Shown here: positions 5,514-37,991 of the stretch, in pieces
Layout: each line of letters begins with the position of its first letter
How positions within the stretch are numbered: position 1 is the first letter of the stretch
From: a virus
IMG/VR virus record: IMGVR_UViG_3300024978_000198
DNA length: 64,000 nucleotides
Strand: one strand, 5' to 3'
The notes under the pieces: generated by a model
Told to the model about the DNA's origin: nothing
The model's input: the letters and a program-made list of their open reading frames with translations, nothing else
The model's database searches: none
Program-made: the position numbers and the translations under genes

Positions 5514-7475
5514 ATGAGCGCAGCGAATCAGCCGAGAATCAAGCCAGGTGTGCCAACCGGCGGCCAGTGGGCCGCGTTCGAGCACAACGAAGCAGGGGTG
5601 TCCTTGTCGGATGCACCTCGCAAGCCGGCGTGGTCGGACATTCAGGCGCGGGTCGATGAACTGGCCAAGTCTGGCCATGCACCGGCGCGTGCAACTTCTG
5701 CCACGTCGGATCCACGACGCGCAGCGGGTGCGAAATCGTGGTGGGCGAATCACTTCGTGAATGCCGAGTACGGCGCCGCTGGTGGCGACTATCCCCAGAT
5801 GCCCGACGACTACACACCGAAGCGCACCGGCGGTAACGCGCTGTCAGGACATCGGCGCACACACCGGATGGCATATTCGACCGCAGACGGCAAGTTCTCG
5901 GTGCGGATGCCTTCAGCCACGTCGATCAAAGCCTTCGAGGGCGAGACCAGCGGCACGTTCGACGTACCGGTGTCCGCTGTGGACGCGGGCGGCAATACTG
6001 TTGCCGGCTGGGTCCGGGCCACCCGCTCGGGTGCCAACTGGAACGTGACCGCTCTCGGCGACTTCGGCGAGAAGACCGGCGCGCAGGTTTCGGAAGCGGT
6101 GTCCGCGGTACTGGAGTCTCGCCGTCCGTCGCGCTCGCTGCGCGATGTCGGTGACCTCCTCGAAGCACACCGGGCCCGCAAGGCCGCCGGTGGGGACACA
6201 TTCGTCGAGGTGCCTTCAACGTTCATCAGCGGGGTCGGCTACAGCGACGAGAACGGCACGATGGCCGTTGCGATCCGCGACAAACTCTATGGCTACCAGG
6301 TGTCCCGCGACGCGTTCGAAGCCGTGCGAAACTCAAGCTCCCCCGGCGGCGCCTACAACCGACTGGTAAAAGGACAGGCCCGATCCGAGCTCGGCCGTTG
6401 CGAGGAGTGCGGGCGCTTTTACGCTGCCGCCAATCCGCACACTTGCCCGACCGGTCACAAGCCGCCCACCGGCTTGACGATCGAGCACAACTTGGCCGCC
6501 CGGGCCTCGGTCGCTTCGATGGCGCGCCTAGCAATGCCTCCGACGCCTACCGCTGTCGATGACGGTCTGGACGACGAAACGCGCACCGCGATCGCCGCTC
6601 TCGCCTCCTACAAGGTCGGCGACAAGGACACCGAGGTAACCGCCGACGAAGCTCGGGATATTCTCGAATCCCTCTCGCCAGGTGACTGGTCCACTCGCGT
6701 CTACGGCATCGGCGTCTTCCCCAGCAATCCGACGCCACAGATCGTTCGCATCCATTCCGTTGCGAAGCTGGATTCGGACGCCTACCGCAGTCGCATCGCC
6801 AAGATGTGGGTTTCCGGCACCACGATCAACGATCTGGTTCAACCCGCCCGGCCCGCGCCTCCTCCCCAGCCGCCTTTCGGTACTCACACCGCGGTGCCGA
6901 AGGATGCGAAAACCGTTGATGTGCGCGCCTACATGATCGACGCCGGAAAGGAGCCACTCATCGACGTCGGGTGGAAGCCGGAGGGCTACCGGCGCGGCTG
7001 GACGACAGACCGGGCAGTGGCCGACAGTGTCGGCAAGTACACGTCTTCGCACTACCTCCCGCTGACCTACAAGAACTCGTCCGGGTACGGACAGCACTGG
7101 AATGGTGAGAGCGGCATCTTGCTCTACAGCGGCATCGGTGGCGAGGACGCCGGCGGGCTCGCTGAAGCGATCCCGGCCGGGCTGAAGGGTGAGCGCCAGG
7201 CCGATGGCCCAGCCGCTGCCGCGGTGCTTCAGGCCGCCGCGGCGAGCGACGGACGTCTGGAGGTCGGCGGCTACCTGGTGGGTCCCGATCGCACGGACGA
7301 GCGAGTCTCGACTGATTCCGTGTACCTGTACGACGCGACCGGGTCGTCACCTGAGTACGCGCTGCACACTCTCCGCACGAAGTACGGCGTCGATGCCGGA
7401 ACGCCGACTGAGGTTAAGAAGGTCGAAAACCCGTGGCGCCCCGGCGAGAAATGCTGGTACATGTTCTGGGACTGA
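5514..7475 (+). CDS. GGQF-tagged multidomain protein with a KTSC-like domain and CxxC-x-HxC knuckle
   Basis: Starts MSAANQPRIKPGVPTGGQWAAFEHNEAGVSL; KTSC-like VPSTFISGVGYS...LYGYQV...SSSPGGAYNRLVKG; CEECGRFYAAANPHTC. Confidence 0.8.
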   Translation: MSAANQPRIKPGVPTGGQWAAFEHNEAGVSLSDAPRKPAWSDIQARVDELAKSGHAPARATSATSDPRRAAGAKSWWANHFVNAEYGAAGGDYPQMPDDYTPKRTGGNALSGHRRTHRMAYSTADGKFSVRMPSATSIKAFEGETSGTFDVPVSAVDAGGNTVAGWVRATRSGANWNVTALGDFGEKTGAQVSEAVSAVLESRRPSRSLRDVGDLLEAHRARKAAGGDTFVEVPSTFISGVGYSDENGTMAVAIRDKLYGYQVSRDAFEAVRNSSSPGGAYNRLVKGQARSELGRCEECGRFYAAANPHTCPTGHKPPTGLTIEHNLAARASVASMARLAMPPTPTAVDDGLDDETRTAIAALASYKVGDKDTEVTADEARDILESLSPGDWSTRVYGIGVFPSNPTPQIVRIHSVAKLDSDAYRSRIAKMWVSGTTINDLVQPARPAPPPQPPFGTHTAVPKDAKTVDVRAYMIDAGKEPLIDVGWKPEGYRRGWTTDRAVADSVGKYTSSHYLPLTYKNSSGYGQHWNGESGILLYSGIGGEDAGGLAEAIPAGLKGERQADGPAAAAVLQAAAASDGRLEVGGYLVGPDRTDERVSTDSVYLYDATGSSPEYALHTLRTKYGVDAGTPTEVKKVENPWRPGEKCWYMFWD

Positions 7476-7487
7476 CCGCGCATAAGT
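7476..7487 (+). promoter_or_regulatory. Class B-like 12-mer CCGCGCATAAGT, 5 nt before the ATG at 7493
   Basis: Same core and spacing as the other copies, but the downstream gene is untagged. Confidence 0.55.
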
Positions 7488-7492
7488 ATGTC

Positions 7493-8155
7493 ATGAGGAG
7501 CTGTGCCCATCCTGAGGCGAACACTGTCGGACCGTCGATGAAGCTCGACGCACTGATGCATCGATACCGGCCGGCTTTCGCCGATACTTGGGCTGAGGCT
7601 CTGGAGATCGTCATGGCCTACGAACTGGAAACTAGACGCGTCGATGAGCTCGCGGCGGAGCTGTCGGCGGCCGGACGGTTCGACTTCCCGGTGGTGCTCG
7701 GGTTCGACGAGGTGATGAACGGTACGCAGATCCCGGCAGCGGTTGAAGACGGCATGCACCGCATCTTCGCGCACGTGCTCTCCGGCATCGACGACGTTCT
7801 CGTGTGCGATCTGAACCATGCGCCTAAAGAAGGCGGCTGGGTGGAGTTGGAGTGGATGCTTCCCGCTCCGCTGGCTGAATCGGTGATCGAGGAAATCGTC
7901 TCCCTCGGCTCATTCCGTATGGACGAGGACCACTGGACGGTCATGGAATCGTTCGGCACCAGCGACGCCTGGATGTCGGCATCCGTTTTCGGGGCTGCTG
8001 ATCACCTTGTGCATAAGACGCTCGCCGCGTACAGCGACCGGCTACATGCCGCCGGCGTCTCGCTCGGGCCTGGCATCGCGAGGTGGGCAACTGACCTGGA
8101 CGATTCGCCCGCATGGTCGGTCCTCCGCAGCGCAACCGGCCAGAACGTCAACTAG
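7493..8155 (+). CDS. Hypothetical protein, possible ParB/Srx-like fold
   Basis: PVVL...VEDGMHRIFA resembles the ParB DGxHR motif; start corrected from the motif. Confidence 0.55.
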   Translation: MRSCAHPEANTVGPSMKLDALMHRYRPAFADTWAEALEIVMAYELETRRVDELAAELSAAGRFDFPVVLGFDEVMNGTQIPAAVEDGMHRIFAHVLSGIDDVLVCDLNHAPKEGGWVELEWMLPAPLAESVIEEIVSLGSFRMDEDHWTVMESFGTSDAWMSASVFGAADHLVHKTLAAYSDRLHAAGVSLGPGIARWATDLDDSPAWSVLRSATGQNVN

Positions 8156-9967: not shown

Positions 9968-10906
9968 TCAGTACTCTTGCGGCACCTCAAGCTTGGACGT
10001 CATTGTCCAGCCGGACGTGTCGTTCGTCATTCGACGGAGGCTCGCGTCGCCTTTCCGCAAATCTTCGAGCGCCTCGGCTGCAGTGCCAGCCCACCCGGTG
10101 CTGTTCAGCGTCGCTGGGTCGAGACGACCGGCCCGCGGGTTGGCGCGCTCGATCGCCCATTTGTATCCGCCGTCGTTGAACGACTTCCAGAACCGGATGC
10201 GGGACCCCATCTCGTTGGCCGACCACGAGTGCTGAGCGCCTGAAGTCCAGCGAACCCCTACGTCGTCGGTGAACCACTCATCTCCGTTGCCGCCGCTGAG
10301 CTTCTCGGCTGTTGAGGCAGGGCTGTCAGTGCTGCTCCACGAGGCGTATGGGGCCTCACGGTCGGCTCGATCCAGATGAGAGCGCAGATCTTCGTAGAAG
10401 GACCCGGACTGGTATCCGCCATTCAGGGCATTGTGCAGTCGAACGGCGCCCGGGTCGGTCTCGGCCCGCAGGACGAGATCACCGATGTTGTCGTCCTCGT
10501 CGAAGTCGTCGATGACAAACTCGGCCTCCTGTTCGCTCCAGTCATCGCCGCCGCCGCCGAGCGACATGCCGTAGTTGTCGGTCAGGAACTTGCCGATCTC
10601 GTCGATGTGGTCGTTCAGATATCGGTCGGCGTCGTCCCCGACGTGATCGTCCGGGCATGCCTGCGTCAGATCGAGCCGGACGGCGCCTTCGATCACCGGG
10701 TTGGACCCGCCGACCAGTTCGAGCCGGTCATAGAGCCCGCCTTGTGCGGGCTGCTCGTGCGGAAGCTCGACCGAGTCGCCATCCTCCGGCATGATGTCGG
10801 CGACGAGGGCTGGCTCGTACAGATCGACGTCGGATTCGCCATGACTCGTTGGTGCGAATTGGCCGCCCGTGGGTACGCCAGCCTGGATACGGTTCACGTT
10901 GCTCAT
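9968..10906 (-). CDS. GGQF-tagged acidic hypothetical protein
   Basis: Starts MSNVNRIQAGVPTGGQFAPTSHGESDVDL; class B motif at 10912-10923. Confidence 0.8.
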   Translation of the reverse strand: MSNVNRIQAGVPTGGQFAPTSHGESDVDLYEPALVADIMPEDGDSVELPHEQPAQGGLYDRLELVGGSNPVIEGAVRLDLTQACPDDHVGDDADRYLNDHIDEIGKFLTDNYGMSLGGGGDDWSEQEAEFVIDDFDEDDNIGDLVLRAETDPGAVRLHNALNGGYQSGSFYEDLRSHLDRADREAPYASWSSTDSPASTAEKLSGGNGDEWFTDDVGVRWTSGAQHSWSANEMGSRIRFWKSFNDGGYKWAIERANPRAGRLDPATLNSTGWAGTAAEALEDLRKGDASLRRMTNDTSGWTMTSKLEVPQEY

Positions 10907-10938: not shown

Positions 10939-12576
10939 CTATTCCCGCGACCACTGGTCCATGTTGCTCTCCAGCCACTTGACAGCGCTTTGCTCATCAC
11001 TGAACTCTCCCTCGTCCTGAGCCCGAAGTGCGGCCCCGAGAATCTGTCCGAATACTGGCCCCGGCTCGAATCCGTAGTGCTTGAGGTGATGGCCAGTGAG
11101 GTATCCGCCACGCGGCCTGTCGGCGGTCCCGAGCTTGCTGGCGACCCGGACCCACGCATCGGCCGGATTAGACCCGCTGGCCGAGCCGCGCCCCGCGTGG
11201 TCCGCGCCGACGACCGCAGCCCACAACTGGAGCCCAGGTCCGCGCCCGCCCGGCGCGTCGAGCCTTCGTATGAGACGCCGAACTGCGTTCGCAGATGGCG
11301 TCCCCCCTTGCTGCACTCCGGCGACGGCCATGTGATTCGAGATGATCGGCAAGATCTTCTCGGCATACTTGGCCGGGGCTCCGATGCGCTCCAGGAGCGC
11401 ACTGGCCGGCTCGACGCCTGCTTCGGCATGGCCGTGCGACGTGATTCGCGTCCCGGGCGTTTCGGCCAGGTTTGGGTCCGGTAGCTGGGTGTGTGTTGCC
11501 TTGCCCAGATCGTGGAACATGCTGGCAAGCACGACCACAGCTCTGTCGTTCTCGGAGACCCGGTTTTTCGACGCCCAGGTGGCCGCGGCATCGGCCGACA
11601 AACCAAGGTGCACGTGCACCGGCCCTTCAGGATGCCACTTCGGATCCTGCGCGACGTCTCTGCAAGCGGCGAGCTCCGGAAAATGCTTCTCCCAGTCGAC
11701 CTCGTGCAAGGCCGCAAGCGACTGGGAAGGCGACTCAGCCCTAGTTGCGATCTTCTCCCACTCGCCCCAGATGCGCTCTTTCGGCAGCTCCTGGAACCGA
11801 TCGGCCAAGTCTCGGCACAACTCCGCGGTCTCAGGAGCGAAGCGCATATCGAAGCGCCCGGCCATCTGCACACCGCGCAGGACTCGCAACGGATCGTCGG
11901 AGAACCGGTCGCTGACGTGTCGCAGAACGCCGACCTGGAGGTCGGCCGATCCGCCGTAGTGATCGATCAGCGTCTCGGGTACCGGGTCGTAACCCATTGC
12001 ATTGACGGTGAAGTCGCGCCTGGCGAACGCCTCTAGCTCACTTAGCTCTGGGTCGATCTCGACGTCGAAGCCGCGGTGGCCGACACCGGTCTTGGAATCT
12101 CGCCGCGGCAGGGATACGTCGAAGTCGCCGTAGATGCCGTGTACTTTGATGACTCCGAACGACGCCCCTACTTCATCGACCCAGGCTGAATTCCGTTCGC
12201 CAAGTGGGCGTAGAGCTTCCCGGAGTTCGCCTGCTGTCAAGCCGTATACCTCGATGTCAACGTCTTTCGGAAGGATCCTCGACCCATGCATGCGGGCGAT
12301 CATGGAGTCGCGCACAGATCCGCCGACAATAATCGGTCGCCCACCGGCGTTCAGCACGACACTGAGCACATCCCACGCGCTGGTCGAAAGCGGAACGAGC
12401 CCGGGAGACAGGCAACGGTGTTCACTACCGCGTGAGGAAAGCCTGTCGCAGTTGACGCAGCGGAAGACCCCAGCCGGCATGTCAGACAGCGTGACGCCCG
12501 ATTCATTGTGGAAACCGGCGCTGAACTGCCCGCCCTCCGGAACTCCGGATCTGACACGATTTCGACGCAGAAACAT
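10939..12576 (-). CDS. cca: GGQF-tagged class II tRNA nucleotidyltransferase (CCA-adding-like) with HD domain
   Basis: GGSVRD, PKDVDIE, RRDFTVNAM, DDPLRVLR, ERIWGEWEK, and HD domain WHPEG...FHDLGK...GHA; class B motif at 12582-12593. Confidence 0.88.
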   Translation of the reverse strand: MFLRRNRVRSGVPEGGQFSAGFHNESGVTLSDMPAGVFRCVNCDRLSSRGSEHRCLSPGLVPLSTSAWDVLSVVLNAGGRPIIVGGSVRDSMIARMHGSRILPKDVDIEVYGLTAGELREALRPLGERNSAWVDEVGASFGVIKVHGIYGDFDVSLPRRDSKTGVGHRGFDVEIDPELSELEAFARRDFTVNAMGYDPVPETLIDHYGGSADLQVGVLRHVSDRFSDDPLRVLRGVQMAGRFDMRFAPETAELCRDLADRFQELPKERIWGEWEKIATRAESPSQSLAALHEVDWEKHFPELAACRDVAQDPKWHPEGPVHVHLGLSADAAATWASKNRVSENDRAVVVLASMFHDLGKATHTQLPDPNLAETPGTRITSHGHAEAGVEPASALLERIGAPAKYAEKILPIISNHMAVAGVQQGGTPSANAVRRLIRRLDAPGGRGPGLQLWAAVVGADHAGRGSASGSNPADAWVRVASKLGTADRPRGGYLTGHHLKHYGFEPGPVFGQILGAALRAQDEGEFSDEQSAVKWLESNMDQWSRE

Positions 12577-14304: not shown

Positions 14305-14616
14305 ATGCAACAAGTGGGAGGTGACGTTGTGCAGAATCTGATCGACCTGGCCAACAAGGTTCTGATCGCCAGAGAGAGCCAGGGCGTGACGCAGACGGAC
14401 TTGGCTAAGAGGTCTGGAGTCAACAGGTCATGGCTTGTTCAGTTCGAGGCCGGGTATGGAAACCCCACTTTCAAGAGCATCGTAGCGGTGCTGTCGGCCC
14501 TCGGCCTGGAGCTGGATGTGATCCCCGCTCCTGTGGTCGACGCCCCGAGTGGACCTGTCGACCTACAGCAGATCGTGCGCGGACTAACGAAGGGCGCCGG
14601 CGATGGAGACAGATGA
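14305..14616 (+). CDS. hipB: HTH-XRE antitoxin, HipB-like
   Basis: TQTDLAKRSGVNRSWLVQFEAG helix-turn-helix; overlaps hipA. Confidence 0.8.
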   Translation: MQQVGGDVVQNLIDLANKVLIARESQGVTQTDLAKRSGVNRSWLVQFEAGYGNPTFKSIVAVLSALGLELDVIPAPVVDAPSGPVDLQQIVRGLTKGAGDGDR

Positions 14617-15982
14617 GCTGTTAGTGGTTATGGATGGATCGGTGTCGGCGACCATCCTTCCTCGGGGGAAGAAATCCAGGCTCCTGTACGACACCAGGCA
14701 GGCATTGACCCCGGTGTCCTTGAGCATGCCCATCAGCGGTAAGCGTTTTCGGTCCGACGTACTGACCCCGTGGACCCGTGGATTACTGCCGGACCGAGAA
14801 GAGGTTCTCAAACGGTGGCGTCGGCATTTCGGTGTCCGCACTCTGGACCCGATCGACCTCCTAGTCCATGTGGGCGAGGATGTGGCCGGCGGCGCGATGT
14901 TCGTCCGCCCGGATCGCCTCACGGCGGCGATGACATGGGAGCCGGCTAAGCCCCTGGCGGAGCGAGAAATCGGCGACATGCTCCGGAGAGCTATCAGTGA
15001 TGCACCAGACCCGATCGCAGGAATCGAAGCGGGTAAGTTCAGCCTGGCCGGCATGCAGCCGAAGATCGCGCTGCAGCAAAGCGATGATGGCGGATGGTCG
15101 CTTCCATCCGGGATAAACCCGACAACACACCTGATCAAACCGGCCGTGTCGAACTACCAAGACCAGCACCTTGTCGAACACATGACGATGTTCTGCGCCG
15201 CAGACGTAGGACTGAGCACTGCGAAGACACGGCCGGCGGTCATTGACGGGATACCGGTCGTCGTGGTGACCAGATTCGACAGGCTGTTGCATCAGGGACG
15301 CTGGATCCGCATCCACCAGGAAGACCTGCTGCAGGCGATGAGTCGGAACCCGTGGGAGAAGTACGAATCCGAAGGAGGCCCCGGCGTCAGAGAAGTTGCG
15401 GCATTTCTTCGGCGGCACGAACTCCCGGAGGAATCGCTGCACCGCTTCGCCCAGTCAGTGATCTTCCACTGGCTCACGGCGAGCACAGATGCCCACGCCA
15501 AGAACTACTCCGTGCTGCTCAACGGCACGAGCGCAACACTGGCCCCCTTGTATGACCTGAACTCGTATCTTGCATACGGGACGCCGTCGAGTCTGTCGAT
15601 GTCAATGAAGGTGGGCTCCGAATACGGCGTCACAAAGGTCAGCAGGTCGGACTGGGCTTACTTCGCGAAAGACTGTGGGGTCACCGATGACTGGGTGATG
15701 TCCGAGATCGATCGGCAATCGAAACTGATCCCGGTTGGATTCAAGAAGGCGTCCGAACAGTTAGTCGCGCAAGACGGGTTTGACACCGTCATTCCAGACC
15801 GGATGGTCGAAGCGTCCACCGAGTGGGTAGACACCGTGCGCCGCTCACTAGGGCTTGTAGCGCGAGCTGCAGCCCCCGCTCCGGCGCGACTGAGTCGAGG
15901 GAAGACGACACGCGCCAGTAACAGAGGGTCATTCAAAACCGTGACTCACCAAGAGTCCGACGTCACCCTCGACCCGCACTGA
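14603..15982 (+). CDS. hipA: HipA-family kinase toxin with a C-terminal tag-like tail
   Basis: SLSMP, FSLAGMQPK, THLIKP, RFDR, DAHAKNYS, LAPLYDL. Confidence 0.92.
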   Translation: METDELLVVMDGSVSATILPRGKKSRLLYDTRQALTPVSLSMPISGKRFRSDVLTPWTRGLLPDREEVLKRWRRHFGVRTLDPIDLLVHVGEDVAGGAMFVRPDRLTAAMTWEPAKPLAEREIGDMLRRAISDAPDPIAGIEAGKFSLAGMQPKIALQQSDDGGWSLPSGINPTTHLIKPAVSNYQDQHLVEHMTMFCAADVGLSTAKTRPAVIDGIPVVVVTRFDRLLHQGRWIRIHQEDLLQAMSRNPWEKYESEGGPGVREVAAFLRRHELPEESLHRFAQSVIFHWLTASTDAHAKNYSVLLNGTSATLAPLYDLNSYLAYGTPSSLSMSMKVGSEYGVTKVSRSDWAYFAKDCGVTDDWVMSEIDRQSKLIPVGFKKASEQLVAQDGFDTVIPDRMVEASTEWVDTVRRSLGLVARAAAPAPARLSRGKTTRASNRGSFKTVTHQESDVTLDPH

Positions 15983-16001: not shown

Positions 16002-16634
16002 CTACAGATCGGTCTCTCCTTGCGGTACACCGCCGAAGTTCACCAACTCGAACACCTCGGCCTCCTCTTCGAGGGAGCTGAGACTTCCTTCGATGACACC
16101 GATCGGGATGTTGCTGAACTGTCTTTGCCCTACCTTCGTCAGTCCGGAGTATCTGATGTACGGGCCGTCGTCAGTGTTCTCGGTGGACTCGACGCGGTCC
16201 GGCTCGAACCACGATGCGGGCACGGCGAGGTCGCTGTTGTAGAAGTCGAGGACGGTTCGCATGCGCTGCTTACCGTCGATGACGGCGTACATCGGTTGAT
16301 CGAGCTGGTAGTCGTCGAATGATCTCATGCGGTCGTTGATGATGAGCGACGGCACGGGGATCCCCTGCAGCAGGGAGCGGATCAGGTTCTTCCTGCGCAC
16401 CGCCCCCCACACGTCGCCGCGCTGATAGGGCGGATCGAAGTCGAAGTACCCTTCCGCTGCGCCGAGTGGAATGAAACCGATTTGCCGGGCGCTCGGCGAC
16501 AATTTGAGGCGCTCCAGCGGCGCATTGGTCTGCATGGTTGCGTAGCGCGTGAGAATCACACCGGGATCGTCGTGCAGCTTGTCCATGAACTGGCCGCCGG
16601 CGGGCACACCTGCTTGGACTCGTGCCTGGGTCAT
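16002..16634 (-). CDS. GGQF-tagged stand-alone DUF262 (ParB-like) protein
   Basis: PPYQRGDVW, LIRSLLQGIPVP, VIDGKQR; starts MTQARVQAGVPAGGQF. Confidence 0.85.
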   Translation of the reverse strand: MTQARVQAGVPAGGQFMDKLHDDPGVILTRYATMQTNAPLERLKLSPSARQIGFIPLGAAEGYFDFDPPYQRGDVWGAVRRKNLIRSLLQGIPVPSLIINDRMRSFDDYQLDQPMYAVIDGKQRMRTVLDFYNSDLAVPASWFEPDRVESTENTDDGPYIRYSGLTKVGQRQFSNIPIGVIEGSLSSLEEEAEVFELVNFGGVPQGETDL

Positions 16635-17044
16635 GTGCCGTTCCTGCTTCCTTCACAGGGTTGGGCCCGGTGGTGATCCTGGGCGGCTTCGGGGACTTGC
16701 CCGTCAGCAATCTGCATGACTCGCGCAGCATCGGTGCTCTTGACGTAATCGGCTCGCGCTCCGCCGAGCTTGCCGCTCTTGAGCACGGACCGTCCGATGA
16801 CCTTCGGTGTCCCCCGAATGCCGTTGTAGGACGTGACTTCGATTCGCTCGACCATGATTGGTGGCTTGGTCGGGTAAGTTTCAATCACGAATCGGTGATC
16901 TGCTGGCAACTCGAACTGAGCGGTTTGCTCGGTGAGTGCCGCCCCTTCTGCCGTCAACGTCACCTCGGGTTCCGTGTGCTGCACTTCGGCGAACCGTCCG
17001 CCGGCCCGACCTCTCCCGCGGGGGATCCTCGGTTGCGCCGTCAC
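16631..17044 (-). CDS. Hypothetical protein with a variant tag
   Basis: GTG start overlapping the upstream TGA; MTAQPRIPRGRGRAGGRFAEVQHTEPEVTL. Confidence 0.7.
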   Translation of the reverse strand: MTAQPRIPRGRGRAGGRFAEVQHTEPEVTLTAEGAALTEQTAQFELPADHRFVIETYPTKPPIMVERIEVTSYNGIRGTPKVIGRSVLKSGKLGGARADYVKSTDAARVMQIADGQVPEAAQDHHRAQPCEGSRNGT

Positions 17045-18450
17045 ACCGCTTCCTCCAGCTTCGCTCGGGTGAGCACCGTCTGCTTGGTGCCGTTCCATTC
17101 GCCGTGCTCCTTGACGGTAGCGGCCTGAATCATGACTTTGTCGCCTTCATTGAAGTCCATCGCACTGGAGGCCATCCATTTGAGCTCATGCCCGTCGTTG
17201 TCGCGGAAGATCAGCATGGTCTTCGTCCCGTAAAACGAATCCAAGTAGAGCGCCTTGGTCACGGTGGCCGGCACTCGACGTACCCGCTCGCCGACCGGCG
17301 CGAGGTACGCGTCCCTCGGCGGGTTCGCCTTGGCGATGGCCTCTTTGACCTGCTTCTCCTTGCTGCGTCGCCAGCCCGACACCGCCGAAGCGAGCATGCC
17401 TATGTGTCGCGGGGTGATGGCCTCTTGGCGGGCGATGTCGCGCATGTTAGCGGCATAGTCGCTCTCGCCTTCCATCATCTTGGCGAAGTCGAGCACCTCG
17501 GCTGCCATCTCCTTGATCTCGTCGCTCCGGATCGCAGCTACGGCTTGCCGGTACTCCTCCGAGTCGCGGGTGTGTTGGTCCGGCCACAGATAGGTCGTGA
17601 CGACACCAGAGGTGGCGTACCTCCCGTACATCTCGGCGTTACTCCGTGAGACGTAGCTCCGCCCCTCGTCAGTGACTGCAAGTGCCATCGTCAGGATCTC
17701 CTCCGGCGAGGCGCTGCGCTCCCACCCGCCAGAGCCGTAACTGCCTGGTTCGTCGTCGGCTTCTTTGATGTCGACGTCCGGATCCCACTCCAGGGACCAC
17801 AGTCCGCGAGGCTCGATGCCGGTGAACGCCTCCAGACAGTTCGATCCCACCTGCTTGACGTCGCCGGAGCTGTCCCGAAGCAGATACGTGGACTTGCGCG
17901 CACGAAGCGTGCCGCAGTGGTCGCACCGCTGTTCGGTCGGTCGGTAGCCCCCCAGTTCTGCGCCTGGCTTGGTGACTGCGATCGGCGTGCCGTCGGCCAG
18001 GACGTCGAGCCGACCGACGAATTCCCAGTCGCCGATCTTGACCTCGGGCTTGTTCAGCCGGTAGTCGATCAGGTCACGGGAGTACTGGCTGCCGTCGGCG
18101 GCCGTTCTCGTCTCGGTTCGCTGACCGAGAATCTCGATCTCGAAGCGCTCGGCAAGACCGTTGCGTTCCAGCTTCTTGTTCGCCGCGGCGATCTTCTTGT
18201 CGAGGTCAGCGAGGCGGGAAGCGAGCATGACCCGGGATCCGCAGATGTGTTCCCGGCCCGGCGAGGTGAACTGGCCGCAATCAGCGCAGCGCGGATCGGC
18301 TTCGACTGCATCGCTGCCTGCGCCCCATTCAGCGCTTTCGCTGACACCACCACCATCGTCATTGAGATCGACCGCCGCCTCGCCGTGCCTGTGCGCCGCG
18401 AACTGCCCGCCGGTCGGCACGCCGGCAGAGACGCGAAGAGTCTGTGTCAT
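17041..18450 (-). CDS. GGQF-tagged phage-type protein with Cys motifs and a putative C-terminal OB fold
   Basis: MTQTLRVSAGVPTGGQFAAHRHGEAAVDL; CADC...HIC; CDHC...QVGSNC. Confidence 0.8.
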   Translation of the reverse strand: MTQTLRVSAGVPTGGQFAAHRHGEAAVDLNDDGGGVSESAEWGAGSDAVEADPRCADCGQFTSPGREHICGSRVMLASRLADLDKKIAAANKKLERNGLAERFEIEILGQRTETRTAADGSQYSRDLIDYRLNKPEVKIGDWEFVGRLDVLADGTPIAVTKPGAELGGYRPTEQRCDHCGTLRARKSTYLLRDSSGDVKQVGSNCLEAFTGIEPRGLWSLEWDPDVDIKEADDEPGSYGSGGWERSASPEEILTMALAVTDEGRSYVSRSNAEMYGRYATSGVVTTYLWPDQHTRDSEEYRQAVAAIRSDEIKEMAAEVLDFAKMMEGESDYAANMRDIARQEAITPRHIGMLASAVSGWRRSKEKQVKEAIAKANPPRDAYLAPVGERVRRVPATVTKALYLDSFYGTKTMLIFRDNDGHELKWMASSAMDFNEGDKVMIQAATVKEHGEWNGTKQTVLTRAKLEEAV

Positions 18451-24640: not shown

Positions 24641-25023
24641 AGTTCTGCCTCGTGGCCACGTGCTTTAAGCGACGGCGGATAGTTGAGCGACATTACGCGG
24701 CAGTAATCAGCGAGCGTCATGTGTCCTGTTTGCTCCGGCGTCGCGGCTCCGCTGCCCCACGCGATCACGTCTGCGTGGGCGGCTCGGGCGGCCGTGTGAA
24801 GCTGATCTCGCGACAAGCTATCGAGCGTCGGGTGTTCTATTCGGATGAAGTCTTCTACGAGCGCCGCCATTTCCGGCTCTTCGGTGTCGATCGCTTCGGC
24901 GATCAAGCGCTGGTATCCGCGCAGCTCACGACGCCGGCCCAGTTCAACGCCGGATTCGGAGTGACGATCGGGCGAAAACTGACCGCCCGTCGGAACGCCT
25001 TTCGATACCCGCCCCCGGCTCAT
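24637..25023 (-). CDS. GGQF-tagged small protein
   Basis: MSRGRVSKGVPTGGQFSPDRHSESGVEL. Confidence 0.75.
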   Translation of the reverse strand: MSRGRVSKGVPTGGQFSPDRHSESGVELGRRRELRGYQRLIAEAIDTEEPEMAALVEDFIRIEHPTLDSLSRDQLHTAARAAHADVIAWGSGAATPEQTGHMTLADYCRVMSLNYPPSLKARGHEAEL

Positions 25024-26083: not shown

Positions 26084-27307
26084 CTACTCGTGCCGGATTG
26101 CTCGATCGAGATCGAGATGGAATCGCCCGCCGCGTTCAAATTTCTCCAGGTAGGGCAAGGTTCCTGGAGTGAGATTCGTCAGGTACATGAATGTCTCGCC
26201 CGGATCCTCCTTGACCGAGATGGCTCGGCCGTTCTTATCGAGGTAGGCGACTGGTTCCAGGTAGAGGCTCGGGCCCCAGTCAAGGTCGACCGACGCCGCC
26301 TGTGGAATCTCTTTGCGGATGTCCAAGGCAGCGGCATGCGCCGATAGTCGCTCGATCACCGTGTTGGCGCCGGCGCGCCCGGCATCCCTGTCGCGGTACG
26401 CCTCCTCCAACGCGTCTGCCACGTCGTTGAGATTCGACTCCCCGTCGATGTCACGATCGGCGCAGGTGCAGAAAGATCGACTGCAGGTCGGGCACTTCTC
26501 GCGCGACTCACTCCACAGGAACGAGCCGTTCTCCCACCATTCGCAGGTGCCGTCAGCCTTCTCAATCGCGGGTCCGCCGACGCGGTGGTACTTGCCGCTC
26601 ACCATCCAGGCGCATGTGCCGTCCGCATTCTCGATAGCCGGTCCGTCGAGACGGTGCGTCTGGCCGTGAATCATCCAGGCGCGAGAACCGTCAGCGTTCT
26701 CCACCGCGGGGCCGTCGAGACGGTGCAACTTGTTTTCCGAATCGTGCCAGGACCGACCTCCGTCAGGTTGCACTCGAACCTGGCCTGCGTCACCGTCCTC
26801 GTATTCAACCGGAATGTGATGGACCTCGTCGTTGATCATCACGGTGATCGGTTGCCCGTCGGTCTGGCCGGAGGTGTCCACCAAGATGAACGTGCCGGGC
26901 CCGGAATCGGGATCTCTCGGCGAGACGAGTACCTCACCAAAGTCGCCTTCGATGCGCTTCTCCGAACCGTCGTAGCGGTTAGCTGCGGCGATCTTCTGCT
27001 CCAGCAGCTCGATCAACTGGGCCTGCTGCGACACGATCGACTCCTGTAGATCGGGCTTCAACCGGTCGAGTTCATCCAGTGCGTTATCGCTCTCTTCAGC
27101 TTTGTCTTGCAGCTCCTGTATCTCGACGGTGTCGCTTTCGATGCCGGCGTGAAGTGCAGAGATCCGGTCATCGAGCGTGTACGTCCTACCGGTAGCAGTG
27201 TTCCTCGGCGATTCCGGAGCAAGCTCGATCCCGGACTCGTCGTGGCCCGCGGCAGCGAACTGCCCACCGGCGGGCACCCCTGCTTGGACGCGCTTCTGAA
27301 TGGTCAC
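26084..27307 (-). CDS. GGQF-tagged protein with a coiled coil and three HRxDGPA repeats
   Basis: MTIQKRVQAGVPAGGQFAAAGHDESGIEL; HRLDGPAVE, HRLDGPAIE, HRVGGPAIE at 23-aa spacing. Confidence 0.8.
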   Translation of the reverse strand: MTIQKRVQAGVPAGGQFAAAGHDESGIELAPESPRNTATGRTYTLDDRISALHAGIESDTVEIQELQDKAEESDNALDELDRLKPDLQESIVSQQAQLIELLEQKIAAANRYDGSEKRIEGDFGEVLVSPRDPDSGPGTFILVDTSGQTDGQPITVMINDEVHHIPVEYEDGDAGQVRVQPDGGRSWHDSENKLHRLDGPAVENADGSRAWMIHGQTHRLDGPAIENADGTCAWMVSGKYHRVGGPAIEKADGTCEWWENGSFLWSESREKCPTCSRSFCTCADRDIDGESNLNDVADALEEAYRDRDAGRAGANTVIERLSAHAAALDIRKEIPQAASVDLDWGPSLYLEPVAYLDKNGRAISVKEDPGETFMYLTNLTPGTLPYLEKFERGGRFHLDLDRAIRHE

Positions 27308-28170
27308 TGCTTGGTGGCCCCTTCCATGCTGGCTAGTGCGTCGCGGTCGTTGTCGCCGATCTGCAGCATCATTCGTTGCATCTGCCCTACCGACAGATCG
27401 ACAGCGCTGAAGAGAGTGGACGGGTCGGGGTCCTTGAGCGTCGGCCGCCTATCGACTTTCACGTCGTAGAGATCGGATCCATTGAGAGTGACGGTTACGT
27501 CCACCCGTGTGCGACCCATGCGGCAGTTGCCCATTTTCAAGCCGTTCCGGACGGCACCTGACCATGCCGCCTTCGCGTCCATGTTTCCGGCCACGATCGG
27601 ACCAATCTGCCGGTAGATAGTGGTGGCGACATTCTTGTCGGCCTCGGTGACCGGGCGAGGCACAGAAGCCGTCTTTAGCCCCCATTTGAGCAGGTAAGTT
27701 CTACCGTCAACGTCATCGTCAATACGACAGTCATCGACGTCCAAGTCGAAATCCTGCGACATCTGATCGAGCATCTCGGCTGCCACATTCCGTCCGTTGA
27801 CTGTTGCTGCAGCAACGGATCGATCACTGTCTTTCCAGCACCGCGCACCACGAATTTCGGACACGAAATTGGCGTGCAGTTCGTGGTCGCCCCAGTTGTC
27901 GGCGTCAAGACTCTCCTTTTCGGCGCGCGCATCCCGCACGGTCCTGAAGTGCGCCGCCATTGCATCCGGATCTGGCGCAGCTTTCGACGCCTGGCATGTG
28001 TGTCCAGGCGGCAGCGCCTCGTCGGGGCGAACGTACTCGTTTCCGCACCGTGGGCATGCGTAGCGAGACGAGTCGGAATGAGCGAGCGTGACGTCCGGGT
28101 CGCCATGGCTCGACGGCGCGAATTGGCCGCCGGCCGGCGTCCCTGGGCGTACCCGCATTTGGTTGCTCAT
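27304..28170 (-). CDS. GGQF-tagged hypothetical protein with a Cys/His knuckle
   Basis: MSNQMRVRPGTPAGGQFAPSSHGDPDVTL; class B motif at 28176-28187. Confidence 0.8.
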   Translation of the reverse strand: MSNQMRVRPGTPAGGQFAPSSHGDPDVTLAHSDSSRYACPRCGNEYVRPDEALPPGHTCQASKAAPDPDAMAAHFRTVRDARAEKESLDADNWGDHELHANFVSEIRGARCWKDSDRSVAAATVNGRNVAAEMLDQMSQDFDLDVDDCRIDDDVDGRTYLLKWGLKTASVPRPVTEADKNVATTIYRQIGPIVAGNMDAKAAWSGAVRNGLKMGNCRMGRTRVDVTVTLNGSDLYDVKVDRRPTLKDPDPSTLFSAVDLSVGQMQRMMLQIGDNDRDALASMEGATKQ

Positions 28171-28744: not shown

Positions 28745-29767
28745 CTACGCCCCGAGATAGCCGCGCAGAGGTTCGAAGTCTGGATCGTTCGGACTGGAGA
28801 ACTCAGCAAGGACGGCTAAGTTGTGCCCGACGACTTGATTGCTCTTCACGCGCTTACCTGTGACCGGACGCATCACCCCATAGCGAACGGTGCCTGTCAC
28901 AGGAGCGACAATCAGATGGGTGCAGCCGGAGCATCCCGCGTCGGCTGCCTGAGCGGATGAAATTGCGTAGAGCTCGTAGGTTGCTGTCTGGTGCCCTTTG
29001 TGTTCGGGCTTGACCTTGAACGGTGCGCGACCAGCACGAAATAGGTTCGGAGAACCTTGCAGCTGCGGATCGAAGCCGCCCGAACGGAGCACCATCGACT
29101 CTTCAGGATCCTCATAGCCGAGGCCATGCCACCGGCGGGCGGCAGCCGGGCCGAACTCTGCGGCGCGCCACCGTGCCGACCGAATTGGCCCGATTCCACG
29201 GGCGCGCCAGACGTCAGCCGTTGCCGGGTCGAATCCGTTTCTCTTCCATTCCCCGGCGTCACCTGCACCGAAGCTGAAACCGGACCAGGCATCGGCCTCG
29301 TCCATACCTGTCTCTGGGTCGAATCCGGCCTTGATCCAAGGGACGTTAAAGTTCGCGTTCCCGCCAGGACCCGAGCGGTTCCACTTAGCCGCAATAGCTG
29401 GGTTGGTCACGCCTGCTTCGACCCAGAGATGCGACTCATCCGCACCGATGCCTTCTGCTGCCCACGCGCTGGACCCCATCTCGTCTCTGGAATCCGCAGG
29501 TTGGGCCACTTCGGCTTCGTCGTCCCGGGATTCCGACGCATCAAGTGCGGCCAGGAAGTCGTCGGTGGCGGCGTTCGATTCGTCGATTCTGTGTTGCAGG
29601 GCAACCCAGTCGTCGAAACCCAACTGAGTGCCCCCGCCAGCCACCTCTCGCCGCCATTCTTCGGCAGTGTAGTCGCCTTCCAGGGACACGCCGGCGTCGT
29701 CGTGAATAGTCGCTGCGAACTGACCGCCGGTGGGAACACCTGGTCGTACTCGATTCTGCATGATCAT
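28745..29767 (-). CDS. GGQF-tagged protein with WxxxGF repeats
   Basis: MIMQNRVRPGVPTGGQFAATIHDDAGVSL; class B motif at 29773-29784. Confidence 0.8.
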   Translation of the reverse strand: MIMQNRVRPGVPTGGQFAATIHDDAGVSLEGDYTAEEWRREVAGGGTQLGFDDWVALQHRIDESNAATDDFLAALDASESRDDEAEVAQPADSRDEMGSSAWAAEGIGADESHLWVEAGVTNPAIAAKWNRSGPGGNANFNVPWIKAGFDPETGMDEADAWSGFSFGAGDAGEWKRNGFDPATADVWRARGIGPIRSARWRAAEFGPAAARRWHGLGYEDPEESMVLRSGGFDPQLQGSPNLFRAGRAPFKVKPEHKGHQTATYELYAISSAQAADAGCSGCTHLIVAPVTGTVRYGVMRPVTGKRVKSNQVVGHNLAVLAEFSSPNDPDFEPLRGYLGA

Positions 29768-29792: not shown

Positions 29793-30278
29793 TCACACGA
29801 AGTAGAGTCGGCCCTCGCCGTACTCTTCGAGATTCGATGATCCGTACACTTTGGCCGCGTCTGACAGCGTGTCGCCGTCTTCACCGAGTCCGTGGTCCCA
29901 GAATCCGGCTCCGTGCCTATTGCGCGTCAGGAAGAAATCGTGTCCGACCTGGCTGAGTCCGTAGTTCGGGTGTTGTGCCCGGACTCGTTCGATAGTGTCG
30001 CGGTTGGCGGCCAAGAAGTCAGCGACCTCGCCTCTTGCCTCGTCCAGCGAGGCAGGCATGATGTCGCCGGCGTCGTAGTTTTCGTCCATCGGGACGTCAT
30101 GTTCGTCGCACGAAGCCCACAGCGCTGTTTCCACGTACGACGACATAACCTGCTCGATATCGTCGGGCCGATAGTCGCCGGGGGCCTCAAGCAGTTGCAC
30201 ATCGGGCGCTCCGTGTTGCTTCTCCGCGAATTGGCCGCCGGAGGGAACCCCTGCCTGAACGCGATTCTGTGTGCTCAT
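29793..30278 (-). CDS. GGQF-tagged phage-type hypothetical protein
   Basis: MSTQNRVQAGVPSGGQFAEKQHGAPDVQL; YVETALW and GHDFFLTRNRHGAGFWD blocks; class B motif at 30284-30295. Confidence 0.8.
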   Translation of the reverse strand: MSTQNRVQAGVPSGGQFAEKQHGAPDVQLLEAPGDYRPDDIEQVMSSYVETALWASCDEHDVPMDENYDAGDIMPASLDEARGEVADFLAANRDTIERVRAQHPNYGLSQVGHDFFLTRNRHGAGFWDHGLGEDGDTLSDAAKVYGSSNLEEYGEGRLYFV

Positions 30279-33163: not shown

Positions 33164-33165
33164 GG

Positions 33166-35742: not shown

Positions 35743-36756
35743 TCAGTGGGGGTTTTTCTTCTCGTCCTCGTGCATCCACCGTGCCCGGTCAAGAGCCTCA
35801 TCCAGGTCGACGCCTCGCGCATCAGCCCAGTGCATAAGGTCGGTCAGCGCATCTTTCAGCTTCGTCTGCGGCTCCTCGTCGGCGTCCACCCATCTATTCA
35901 TGACATGCTCGGCGCGCGCCGCAGCGCGTGACGGTGCTGTCTGAGTATCTGGCTCGCGCTCCGCGTTGATGAACCCGCCTGCAAGGCTGATCGATACCGG
36001 CTGGCCATCTCCATCGGTGGCGGCGTAGTTGCCGTCCGGTAGTGCGTCGGGAATCTCGCCGATCGTGCCCATATAGATCTGGACGCCTGTATCTTCCGAG
36101 CGGATGATGACAAGCTCCTCAGCGTAGACGGAGTCGTTCGCCGACACCGGAAGCATTCCGGTCTTTTGGGTTTTCTTGCTCAGTCGGCGCAGGTCTCCGT
36201 CTAGTGACTGTGCGTAGTTCATGGCCGCGTTGATTCCGGTGGACTCGGGGTCGTAGGTGATGTCACCGGTGTCGCGATACTCCGAGATCGAGGTGAAGTC
36301 GCCGTGCCGGCCGGTGTAAACGGCGATCGAGTAGCCATCCACCCCCTCCCCGTCCGACTCGAAGGAGAACCGCGGCTCACCGACCGCGAGCTGTGACGAT
36401 GTTACGAATTGTCGCTCGTAACCGCGGCGCAGTCGATGGAATACCTCTTCAGCTTGTCCGAGCTCGTAGGAGCCTTCCATTGCGCCGTAGGTCTCTTCGA
36501 TCTCGTCGATCACGTCCTGCCGCGAACGGGCCACGCCGTCGTCGAAGTTCTCAGGATCGGTGATGACCGCGAACAACTTCTTGTTCTCATCGTCAAGGTT
36601 CCGGTAGTACGCAAGCACTCGCGAATCATCGATCTCCGCTGCGATCGGGTCGCTGGCCGGATCGGTCAGCAGCGTCACATCGGACTCGCCTTTCGTGTCC
36701 GGTGCGAACTGGCCGCCCGCGGGCACGCCGGATTGGACTCGCTTCTGCATGTTCAT
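35743..36756 (-). CDS. GGQF-tagged hypothetical protein
   Basis: MNMQKRVQSGVPAGGQFAPDTKGESDVTL; class B variant CCGAGCAAAGAT at 36762-36773. Confidence 0.8.
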   Translation of the reverse strand: MNMQKRVQSGVPAGGQFAPDTKGESDVTLLTDPASDPIAAEIDDSRVLAYYRNLDDENKKLFAVITDPENFDDGVARSRQDVIDEIEETYGAMEGSYELGQAEEVFHRLRRGYERQFVTSSQLAVGEPRFSFESDGEGVDGYSIAVYTGRHGDFTSISEYRDTGDITYDPESTGINAAMNYAQSLDGDLRRLSKKTQKTGMLPVSANDSVYAEELVIIRSEDTGVQIYMGTIGEIPDALPDGNYAATDGDGQPVSISLAGGFINAEREPDTQTAPSRAAARAEHVMNRWVDADEEPQTKLKDALTDLMHWADARGVDLDEALDRARWMHEDEKKNPH

Positions 36757-36759
36757 GGC

Positions 36760-37155
36760 CTATCTTTGCTCGGGTGGCTCGACGCGCTCGCCGTCTCGGT
36801 ACCACTGCTTTGTGCTGTTTTTCCAATCGATTGCCGGTCCGTCGTCGCGGTGCAGTTTGCCGTTGCGGTACCAGTCGTTGTTACCGCCCGGACGTTCTAT
36901 CGCCGGTCCGTCGTCGCGATGGCGTGTTCCGCTTCGGAACCACTGTTTCGCACCGTTGGCGTTCTCAATCGCCGGCCCGTCTTCACGGTGATACTCGCCG
37001 GCGGCGTTTCGCCATTCCATGTCGCCGTGCCGGTTGACCCGCATGGTGGAGCTATCGGTGGGCGCTGCCAAGCTCACTTCTGAGGCATAGTGTTGCTGCG
37101 TCGCGAATTGACCGCCGGTTGGAACCCCTGCGGAAACCCTTCGCTGTCTGCTCAT
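36760..37155 (-). CDS. GGQF-tagged protein with three HRxDGPA repeats
   Basis: MSRQRRVSAGVPTGGQFATQQHYASEVSL; class B variant CCGCATATAGAT at 37161-37172. Confidence 0.8.
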   Translation of the reverse strand: MSRQRRVSAGVPTGGQFATQQHYASEVSLAAPTDSSTMRVNRHGDMEWRNAAGEYHREDGPAIENANGAKQWFRSGTRHRDDGPAIERPGGNNDWYRNGKLHRDDGPAIDWKNSTKQWYRDGERVEPPEQR

Positions 37156-37328
37156 ATCCGATCTATATGCGGGATGGGCAGGTCTACCTCGTGACTAGAG
37201 GATTCGCGCGCACGTGGGCGAAAACTCGGCGTTCACAAGTGCGACTTCCGGATCCGTCGTGGTGATTCTCGGCGACCTGGCCGCCCATGGATACGGGCGT
37301 GCCAACGGGGCGGCGCCGCCGATCGAGC

Positions 37329-37991
37329 TCACTTCCTATTGGAAGCCAGGTCGAACTCCCCGGGGAAGAACCTTCGAGCACCTTGCTCTGCGTCTTCATC
37401 CGAAATCTCGACCCAGTCCTCGTTGCGGAAAGTGTGCTCGACGATATAGCGCTCGCAGTCCTCCTCGTACCAGCCGCCCCTACGCCTCCATGCCGGATGC
37501 ACTTGCTTGTTGCGCTGCTGGGAAAGCTTGTATCCGCCGTGGCCGGCGGTGGATGCAAAGGCGACGCCGGGAGCGAGGTTCTCGACGTGTTGAGCTCTGC
37601 CCCACGGCGTGGTGGATCCCTCGCGGACGCTGATGCGCCCGTAGCGTTCCTCCTCTGATCTCGCCCGCTCATCGATCTTGAGCATTGCGATGGCGTCGAT
37701 CGCCTGCTGCCGAGCATCTTCCGCGGACGCCCCTTGCCCCGTGATCGTGTGAAGTCCGTCGGCGGTGCTGGCCTCCCAGTAGCCGGATTCGGCAAGGACC
37801 ACGAGATTGAACCCGTCCTTGGTGGCACGGGAAACCTTTCCGGAAGGCGTCTCCACCCAGTCGACTCTGGCAACGAGTGGCGTTGACGCGCTGTCCAGGC
37901 TGACTCCAGATTCGGCATGCTGCTGCGGAGCGAACTTGCCGCCTTTGGATGCCGGGGTGCCCTTTGGGTGTCTCTTCTGATCGGTCGTCAT
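37329..37991 (-). CDS. Protein with a variant tag and a DUF7007-like C-terminal domain
   Basis: MTTDQKRHPKGTPASKGGKFAPQQHAESGVSL; TPWG...STAGHGGY...WYEEDCE; class B variant CCGCACATAGAT at 37997-38008. Confidence 0.75.
   Translation of the reverse strand: MTTDQKRHPKGTPASKGGKFAPQQHAESGVSLDSASTPLVARVDWVETPSGKVSRATKDGFNLVVLAESGYWEASTADGLHTITGQGASAEDARQQAIDAIAMLKIDERARSEEERYGRISVREGSTTPWGRAQHVENLAPGVAFASTAGHGGYKLSQQRNKQVHPAWRRRGGWYEEDCERYIVEHTFRNEDWVEISDEDAEQGARRFFPGEFDLASNRK

Follow-up and report, generated by a model that had tools for sequence, protein, structure and literature searches.

The internal proteins IPI-III and Alt of phage T4 carry a short N-terminal peptide, the capsid-targeting sequence (CTS), which is removed by the prohead protease after packaging. 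The known signals for type IV secretion are C-terminal tails, positively charged or hydrophobic, or internal folded TSA/TSB domains. For the polyvalent proteins of phages and conjugative elements, passages of Iyer, Burroughs, Anand, de Souza and Aravind (2017; PMC5512222) argue that they are delivered together with DNA and cut into functional units, and state that the ArdC protein of an IncW plasmid is itself transferred with the DNA. Leading-region establishment and anti-defence islands of conjugative plasmids, whose genes sit beside oriT on the side that enters first and on the strand that is transferred, have been described by Samuel and Burstein (2024; PMC11541004). Here, we analyzed a stretch of 64,000 nucleotides from the IMG/VR virus record IMGVR_UViG_3300024978_000198 (the whole stretch is hereafter called the window), in which 19 otherwise unrelated proteins open with the same peptide of about 30 residues, hereafter the tag. 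We report that the tag is modular, selected as a peptide, restricted to one lineage of elements and predicted to be disordered, and that it has a motif in common with effectors of phage head modules; from there we infer that one partner reads it, most likely for delivery with DNA.

All 19 open reading frames (ORFs) that a sequence-only reading of the window had listed as sharing an N-terminal peptide start where they were placed and open with that peptide, one on the plus and 18 on the minus strand. Their aligned consensus is M-x2-Q-x-R-V-x-A-G-V-P-x-G-G-Q-F-A-x3-H-x-E-x2-V-x-L, with R, G and G-G invariant and P, F and L at least 90% conserved, and it falls into two blocks, R-V-x-x-G-V-P-x-G-G-Q-F-A and H/R-x-E-x-x-V-x-L. 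The variants GGRF (17044) and GGKF (37991) are as previously noticed, to which GGQW (5514) has to be added. In a six-frame scan of the window with a profile built from the 19 N-termini, the members scored 45.4–62.7 bits, while the best non-member, the C-terminal end of a HipA protein, reached 9.9 bits and no twentieth copy in the window rose above that value. With 45–63 bits for the members against less than 10 bits elsewhere, the array is far beyond chance. The claim that codons vary synonymously under a constant peptide was borne out: averaged over 30 tag codons, the information amounts to 1.03 bits at the first, 1.09 bits at the second and 0.40 bits at the third codon position, with three to five codons in use for each of the conserved residues Gly, Arg, Val and Pro (all four for Gly). 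Since conservation resides in the first two codon positions and not in the third, selection acts on the peptide rather than on DNA or RNA.

The cargo behind the tag is indeed unrelated from protein to protein. Pfam detects PolyA_pol with HD (CCA-type), GmrSD_N/DUF262, DUF7007 and a weak KTSC match, and most other tagged proteins belong to no Pfam family; phrog_2319 and repeat proteins complete the cargo classes of the window, the rest being mostly familyless. The tagged window proteins are 128–653 aa long and contain one Pfam-detectable enzyme module or domain each, or none. In the DUF262 protein, 33 tag residues stand directly before a Met, and this Met34 aligns with the start of untagged homologues; the tag is present on only 2 of the 120 closest homologues, the other 118 being untagged (an alignment that combined short tags with these homologues placed the tags wrongly and was set aside). 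For the phrog_2319 cargo, the alignment with phage and plasmid homologues begins only at residue ~71–86, the phage ones having no tag, and one Curtobacterium plasmid homologue aligns from residue 1. AlphaFold2 gave the domain of the DUF262 protein a per-residue confidence (pLDDT) of 87–99 and the tag one of 48–59, as coil with no secondary structure, and the tag alone, supplied with a 120-sequence alignment, was likewise predicted with no secondary structure (predicted template modelling score, pTM, 0.18). A coil at pLDDT ~50 next to confidently modelled cargo, taken together with the scarcity of tagged DUF262 homologues, indicates that the tag is not an integral part of the cargo folds. According to these models, it is a portable, intrinsically disordered peptide module that is independent of the cargo fold. 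Neither does it need a free N-terminus: a HipA homologue in an Actinotalea metagenome-assembled genome (MAG; G004) has a complete tag at its C-terminus, the protein P0008 has a tag at both ends, and in polyvalent proteins block 1 is internal. The tag does not resemble a Sec or Tat signal peptide, in which a basic N-region (twin arginine for Tat) precedes a hydrophobic core of 10–20 residues: the alignment has no hydrophobic stretch and no R-R-x-F-L-K, and the consensus is polar and rich in Gly and Pro.

We found that 13 of the 19 tagged genes are preceded by a promoter-like box, CGCGCATAGAT (0–2 mismatches), with 5 nt between it and the ATG in 12 of them and no Shine-Dalgarno sequence there. 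The window contains nine exact copies of the box, every one of them ahead of a tagged gene. The starts of the remaining six either overlap the stop of the gene before or abut it, and are accompanied by GGAGG-like (Shine-Dalgarno-like) sequences. Box-headed genes followed by coupled, Shine-Dalgarno-led ones make the array a set of short operons; the box at their head is probably a leaderless promoter and, being shared by the first gene of each operon, makes the tagged genes one expression class as well. In related elements, the box is element-specific (CCGCGCATAGAT, GCCGCACACA, CCCGCGCATG, CCCGCACATC) and keeps its distance to the ATG, most copies being followed by G-G-C right before the start codon. 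It looks like a class of leaderless promoters belonging to this lineage of plasmids, and a dedicated sigma factor might be what reads it. The promoter-like core before tagged genes reads CCGC(G/A)CA, about 10 nt, ATG; untagged genes carry the same core in a longer bipartite form, with a class A copy at window 52081–52119. A tagged metagenome protein of 434 aa, P0078, weakly matches Sigma70_r2 (E 7.5e-4) and could be a tagged sigma-like factor.

The tag and its upstream box together form a unit of ~115 bp. As they move as such a unit, and as a fixed distance from box to ATG with no Shine-Dalgarno sequence makes leaderless starts plausible, the peptide might have no function at all and have arisen as a side effect, either of a spreading promoter-plus-5'-end cassette or of the constraints that leaderless translation imposes. 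We consider this very unlikely. Third codon positions are nearly free although the amino acids are kept, which largely excludes a cassette artefact; the six tagged genes with coupled, Shine-Dalgarno-led starts have no box, and the tag is also found at C-terminal and internal positions. Moreover, orthologous cargo stays tagged across elements and genera at 30–55% cargo identity (5/5, 3/3 and, for ArdC, 4/5).

Outside the window, a search of 1.84 billion proteins with the tag profile (E ≤ 1e-3) gave 1,946 clusters at 50% identity; the top 150 proteins include 146 strong matches, of which 144 start in the first 20 residues. Of 122 tagged proteins sampled elsewhere, around 90% have no Pfam domain; SSB-domain and pentapeptide-repeat proteins are among these 122. 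No model of Pfam, NCBIfam or PHROGs covers the tag, no solved structure contains it, and we found no description of it in literature searches on the motif, on plasmid pACHL01 and on polyvalent, MuF and polymorphic-toxin proteins. In genomes, its presence is all-or-none and clustered. The complete chromosome of Arthrobacter sp. N1 carries 9 tags, all in 36 kb, and MAGs of Nakamurella, Actinotalea and Acidimicrobiaceae carry 33 tags on 2 contigs, 38 on 4 contigs and 8 on 1 contig, respectively, while 400 other evenly sampled Actinomycetota genomes, with 19 candidates per genome scored, yielded no match at E ≤ 1e-5. With the N1 copies confined to 36 kb and none in the sampled genomes, the tag is not spread over chromosomal proteins and is confined to mobile-element DNA. 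A 40-aa tag query matched, in the plasmid collection, only five megaplasmids of 375–440 kb from Arthrobacter, Pseudarthrobacter and Paenarthrobacter, and none of 50,697 phage records. The megaplasmid pACHL01 of the cultured strain Pseudarthrobacter chlorophenolicus A6 (NC_011879.1) has 49 profile matches, which corresponds to ~9% of its genes. One of its tagged proteins is LigA, 701 aa, with an N-terminal tag (L062 19986–22091); the NAD-dependent DNA ligase of the window (44106–47819, minus strand) is an untagged fusion of 1,237 aa with ~580 unassigned N-terminal residues. Divergent variants of the tag, G-K-F-G-E-Q-H-R-x-E-A and H-P-R-x3-G-R-F, are encoded by the Curtobacterium plasmid pS16.

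By gene content, the scaffold of the window, pACHL01 and the three MAG elements represent one lineage of giant actinobacterial plasmids. Their common untagged backbone consists of MoxR, DUF2201, an SF1 helicase, DnaE, a DNMK-like kinase and an acidic protein of 181 aa. A transfer-like module with AAA_10/VirB4-like and FtsK-like ATPases is common to pACHL01 and the three MAG elements; AAA_10 was detected in pACHL01, pS16, G002 and G004, and FtsK_SpoIIIE in G002 and G004. Wall hydrolases are encoded as well, namely CHAP and transglycosylase in pACHL01 and NlpC/P60 in pS16. The sequence-only reading had proposed to ask whether the tag clusters on replicons with capsid or secretion genes: arrays of 8–49 copies are confined to islands or megaplasmids, on the related elements together with AAA_10/VirB4-like ATPases, and no HK97-type capsid or MuF genes were found with them. 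In the Nakamurella MAG, the AAA_10-like and FtsK-like ATPases (L045:14365–18849, L048:7802–12613) carry LAGLIDADG/homing-endonuclease segments, which suggests that these transfer ATPases contain inteins. The 427-kb pACHL01 harbors an array of 39 tRNA genes plus tmRNA and its own secY and secG (L063 27520–34677 and 11238–12836), and also encodes peptidyl-tRNA hydrolase, a GatB/YqeY-domain protein, DHFR and thioredoxin reductase, which adds up to a near-complete translation-support set.

Each element has a tag signature of its own. In the window, H-x-E takes the place of the R-x-E seen in others; R-Q-P-A-G...F-A-T-T-A-R is characteristic of the Actinotalea element and F-A-P-K-T-T-A-E of the Acidimicrobiaceae one, and in 14 of 17 ortholog pairs the two tags are less alike than each is to unrelated tags of its own element. 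Such likeness within an element would fit either one reader per element or host, or homogenisation within the element. Variation of the signatures among elements of different host genera also agrees with docking on a host hub that involves no transport, the tag recruiting proteins to the nucleoid or replisome, RNA polymerase, ribosome or a chaperone in whichever cell has the plasmid. In line with this are the disordered linear motif at either protein end or in the interior, the nucleic-acid enzymes among the cargo (LigA, CCA/HD, DUF262, SSB, ArdC), the promoter-like boxes of the tagged genes, and the fact that phage and plasmid proteins, which have the host and not a transfer machine in common, are both tagged. 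Yet, a conserved host reader might be expected to have chromosomal clients bearing the motif, and none was seen outside the islands, either on the N1 chromosome or in the 400 sampled genomes, so that we regard a host hub as unlikely.

Block 1 recurs in polyvalent proteins. Three giant matches of 1,692–1,965 aa (P0021, P0089 and P0007) possess 5–8 internal copies each, in the form K-Y/F-x3-Q-P-R-x-P-A-G-x-P-x-G-G-Q/E-W/F, between ART-PolyVal, ADPrib_exo_Tox, NUDIX and GNAT domains; one P0089 copy is a short form, Q-P-R-D-x2-G-R-W. The P0089 gene sits between portal/MuF and an S78 prohead protease, and P0021 just upstream of a protease–capsid gene. In the P0089 phage, the motif is also found in the neighbouring Zeta-toxin and ART proteins and in 0 of 30 other genes. 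No description of this inter-domain motif came up under the terms searched in the text of PMC5512222. The position of block 1 before every polyvalent domain, in genes beside a prohead protease or upstream of protease and capsid, would also be expected of a processing or turnover signal. An element or host protease would then cut polyvalent proteins into their domains, as passages of Iyer et al. propose (PMC5512222), and on single proteins would either take off the tag or uncover a destabilising Phe or Trp behind G-G-Q, the proteins thereby being activated or removed on schedule. The G-G and the aromatic residue are invariant and the residue between them varies (Q, E, R, K), and peptidase-like genes accompany the tags (ArdC with M78; DUF2201, a putative metallopeptidase, with MoxR in 4–5 elements). 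On the other hand, ~30 conserved residues in two blocks go far beyond what a cleavage site usually needs, a cut on single proteins would take off only ~15 residues, DUF2201 is common in the chromosomes of tagless genomes, and no protease family is common to all tag-bearing elements. Such a processing signal, including its outcome of scheduled activation or removal, thus appears improbable to us.

The same head-module effectors recall capsid targeting of the T4 CTS type, with the element being a giant phage or a particle maker, and the megaplasmid content is in part phage-like (39 tRNAs with tmRNA, DnaE, DNMK-like kinase, dUTPase, WhiB, Lsr2). Neither Phage_capsid (PF05065, HK97-type) nor Phage_Mu_F (PF04233) was detected on the tag-bearing contigs, on pS16 or in the complete Arthrobacter sp. 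N1 genome, however, nor PF05065, the only one of the two searched for there, on pACHL01. The full tag was not found in the phage records mentioned above, the VirB4-like ATPases of the plasmids and the CHAP and transglycosylase proteins of pACHL01 are typical of conjugation, and 49 cargo species are many for one capsid. Capsid targeting is therefore very improbable. Of the original proposal, that the tag loads cargo into a particle or transfer apparatus or docks it on a common scaffold, what stands is a portable peptide module under peptide-level selection, whereas packaging in a capsid is unlikely.

Judged from their sequences, the proteins marked by the tag are of accessory or effector type (CCA/HD, ParB-like DUF262, ArdC, SSB, pentapeptide, LigA, HipA and many unknown folds). 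On the same kind of evidence, the tag is likely a short linear docking motif bound by one common partner, through which all tagged proteins would be handled as one group. The partner may further couple them to the DNA-transfer route of the element, so that they would reach a new host with the DNA and act there; they would then match, in un-fused form, the polyvalent proteins that phages and conjugative elements encode. We favor this coupling, tentatively, because of the tagged ArdC and SSB-domain proteins, the polyvalent motif, the transfer modules of related replicons and the resemblance to leading regions. The support that the polyvalent-protein motif, the tagged ArdC homologues and the SSB-domain protein lend to delivery is circumstantial; ArdC and SSB belong to protein classes linked to plasmid transfer and to the early phase of establishment. 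As a whole, a linear docking motif with one partner that handles the proteins as a group, most likely for delivery with DNA, is the best explanation that we can offer, although we would put it somewhat below an even chance. Its strongest form, an address code in which one dedicated partner sends up to a tenth of a proteome (49 proteins in pACHL01) into the recipient with the DNA and the same code separates or addresses the domains of phage polyvalent proteins, is doubtful. If true, it would amount to a "co-transferred proteome" made from separate genes and to a sequence-defined delivery signal, the first that conjugative and phage-injected effectors would have in common.

Several observations weigh against docking for delivery. 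No partner was identified, and the sole complex prediction, of the tag with the 181-aa acidic protein, scored 0.00 with both chains poorly folded, which is evidence neither way. The signals known from type IV secretion sit at the C-terminus, but in all 19 window proteins the tag is at the N-terminus, and it is rich in Gly and Pro and poor in charges. On the 91 kb read of the window's scaffold, no transfer module was seen, only a HerA/FtsK-like ATPase (Table 1), and no VirB4-like gene was found in the genome of Arthrobacter sp. N1, whose 9 tags may be remnants. With a promoter-like box of its own before each operon, production in the recipient could suffice, without any transport of the proteins. 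Tagged LigA and CCA enzyme look like plasmid housekeeping rather than injected weapons, and a motif before every polyvalent domain would suit a processing site no less than an address.

As for candidate readers, the 181-aa acidic, familyless backbone protein (L043:6656–7201, ~2.1–2.6 kb left of the window start; pACHL01 147886–148410) is kept in five tag-bearing elements. It is nearly unique in a collection of 5.8 billion proteins, where a homologue search returned only itself, and its gene adjoins that of the DNMK-like kinase in pACHL01 and in the Actinotalea MAG. The MoxR AAA+ protein and DUF2201 (putative metallopeptidase with VWA), encoded at window 42386–43585 and 62252–63598 (minus strand), are kept in 4–5 related elements and, in G002 and G004, adjoin each other and a protein of 380–510 aa of unassigned family. 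We rejected this pair as a dedicated reader and retain it as a low-odds candidate only, as DUF2201 is common in actinobacterial chromosomes (45–50% identity) and the tag is rare. The SecY/SecG proteins of pACHL01 were also rejected, as no plasmid copy was found in pS16 and the copies of G002, G004 and G005 are on tagless contigs.

The tagged genes are collected in Table 1. The single tagged gene on the plus strand (5514..7475) has orthologues in four other elements, all tagged, and orthologues of the CCA/HD enzyme are tagged in G002 and G004. Residues 173–261 of the 26084..27307 protein share 43% identity with the cargo of 36760..37155. The operon headed by 27304..28170 terminates in an untagged DNA methyltransferase gene (23234–24640), whose product is paralogous (42% identity) to that of another methyltransferase gene of the array. 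The latter encodes an N6/N4 methyltransferase of 708 aa and adjoins the gene for a ResIII helicase of 871 aa (30548–35292, minus strand), the two of which look like a type III restriction-modification pair. On the opposite strand inside the array lies hipA preceded by a HipB-like helix-turn-helix (HTH) gene (14305–15982, plus strand). The statement that no tagged gene occurs after 38 kb is correct within the window; on the same scaffold, however, a tagged ArdC-N/M78 gene follows ~6 kb past the window end.

Table 1. Tagged genes of the window and related features of its scaffold (window coordinates; box, promoter-like box)
Coordinates	Strand	Length (aa)	Product	Tag score (bits)	Upstream signal
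5514..7475	+	653	Tagged; GGQW; weak KTSC-like region	57.8	Box 5498-5508, 5 nt before ATG
9968..10906	-	312	Tagged; no Pfam/PHROG family	61.3	Box 10912-10922
10939..12576	-	545	Tagged CCA-adding/poly(A)-polymerase-type nucleotidyltransferase + HD (Pfam PolyA_pol, PolyA_pol_RNAbd, HD)		Box 12582-12592
14603..15982	+	459	HipA-type kinase ending in degenerate second tag half (Pfam HipA_C, Couple_hipA)	9.9 (last 15 residues)	
16002..16634	-	210	Tagged DUF262/GmrSD_N, ParB-like (Pfam GmrSD_N)		Start overlaps end of upstream gene
16631..17044	-	137	Tagged; GGRF; GTG start	45.4	Overlaps upstream stop; Shine-Dalgarno-like GGAGGAAG
17041..18450	-	469	Tagged; phrog_2319 cargo (PHROG match 3.8e-66, residues 79-467)		
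18447..19358	-	303	Tagged; head of four-gene tagged operon	61.3	Box, one mismatch, 19364-19374
19758..21362	-	534	Tagged; divergent tag	47.6	Box 21390-21400, 27 nt upstream, then AAGGAGG
21444..22223	-	259	Tagged	58.0	Box 22229-22239
22262..22789	-	175	Tagged	57.3	Box 22795-22805
24637..25023	-	128	Tagged; translationally coupled to upstream gene	55.2	Start overlaps upstream stop
25020..26072	-	350	Tagged; W-x3-GF-type repeats	54.3	GGAGG
26084..27307	-	407	Tagged; GTG start	58.1	
27304..28170	-	288	Tagged; operon head	61.9	Box 28176-28186
28745..29767	-	340	Tagged	62.4	Box 29773-29783
29793..30278	-	161	Tagged	62.7	Box 30284-30294
35743..36756	-	337	Tagged	60.9	Box, two mismatches, 36762-36772
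36760..37155	-	131	Tagged; H-R-x-D-G-P-A type repeats	62.6	Box, two mismatches, 37161-37171
37329..37991	-	220	Tagged DUF7007; GGKF (Pfam DUF7007 5.3e-30)	50.3	Box, one mismatch, 37997-38007
57030-58964			HerA/FtsK-like ATPase with HTH domain; untagged		
~70001-71029			Tagged ArdC-N/M78; past window end, same scaffold		

The untagged neighbours in the window include two N6/N4 DNA methyltransferases, a ResIII and a UvrD-type helicase, HipA with the HipB-like protein, the NAD-ligase fusion, a DNMK-like kinase, NADAR-SLOG, an EAL protein, an R2K ATP-grasp enzyme, MoxR and the DUF2201 VWA protein. At window 1–4530 (plus strand), a protein of >1,500 aa combines six DUF4379 treble-clef zinc-finger repeats, an SF2 helicase core and a Methyltransf_8-type methyltransferase; its build is polyvalent-like and it has no tag. 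The scaffold flanks encode a giant SpaA/TQ/fn3 surface protein, G5-domain proteins, a transposase, an SF1 helicase, a dCTP deaminase and WhiB, as well as the tagged ArdC-N/M78 protein, an RNase T-like exonuclease and a DnaE-type polymerase. Nothing near-identical to the window DNA is present in the plasmid or phage collections. Scaffolds of bioreactor and wastewater metagenomes, up to 118.5 kb long, contain the same DNA, and the element was detected only in DNA runs of such metagenomes, with a further 6% word share in one landfill run, and in no RNA runs.

A shared address peptide reveals which proteins a mobile element treats as one set, and with 1,946 clusters, this one is found on hundreds to thousands of families whose function is unknown. 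Should its reader be found, a new route of sorting or processing in Actinomycetota would be defined, the establishment and anti-defence arsenal of giant plasmids would become predictable from sequence, and there would be an explanation for the inter-domain motif repeated in polyvalent proteins of phages and plasmids, the delivery and processing of which remain conjecture. The system is testable, as P. chlorophenolicus A6 is cultured and fully sequenced, with 49 tagged genes on pACHL01, and the fixed-distance box before the tagged genes provides a defined regulon for studying leaderless expression.

Compared with the T4 CTS, the tag is likewise a short N-terminal peptide common to unrelated proteins (19/19 in the window, 144/146 strong matches elsewhere), and in phages block 1 likewise marks effector genes of the head module beside the prohead protease. 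Yet, the tag is three times longer, dissimilar in sequence and not restricted to the N-terminus, and the plasmids that bear it have no detectable capsid or MuF genes. With type IV secretion and conjugative transfer (ArdC, TraC1/Sog primases, relaxases), it shares an unstructured signal and a tagged ArdC homologue, on elements whose related replicons have VirB4-like ATPases and whose related contigs have FtsK-like ones too. The leading-region islands described in PMC11541004 are similar in the co-orientation of the array (18 of 19 genes on one strand), the orphan-like methyltransferases, the toxin-antitoxin pair, the nearby ArdC and the small uncharacterised genes. This likeness consists in co-orientation and gene content, the tagged SSB and pentapeptide-repeat proteins occurring elsewhere than in the window. 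No shared peptide is described for those islands in PMC11541004, and the box found here is a linear motif at a fixed distance, as opposed to a hairpin single-stranded DNA promoter. In polyvalent proteins, block 1 (Q-x-R-V-x-x-G-x-P-x-G-G-Q/E-F/W) is the very motif that precedes each effector domain, the cargo shares the ArdC-N with peptidase and ParB-like nuclease classes, the mobile-element context is the same, and NUDIX, an SNF2-type helicase-methyltransferase fusion and Zeta/HipA-type kinases are among the neighbours. In contrast to the 2–15 effector domains joined there in one polypeptide, separate genes with a promoter-like box of their own are found here, and the second tag block (H/R-x-E-x2-V-x-L) is absent from the internal repeats of polyvalent proteins. 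A shared address peptide on the cargo of a mobile element is thus a known concept, while this peptide, the scale of its use and its tie to the polyvalent motif appear to be new.

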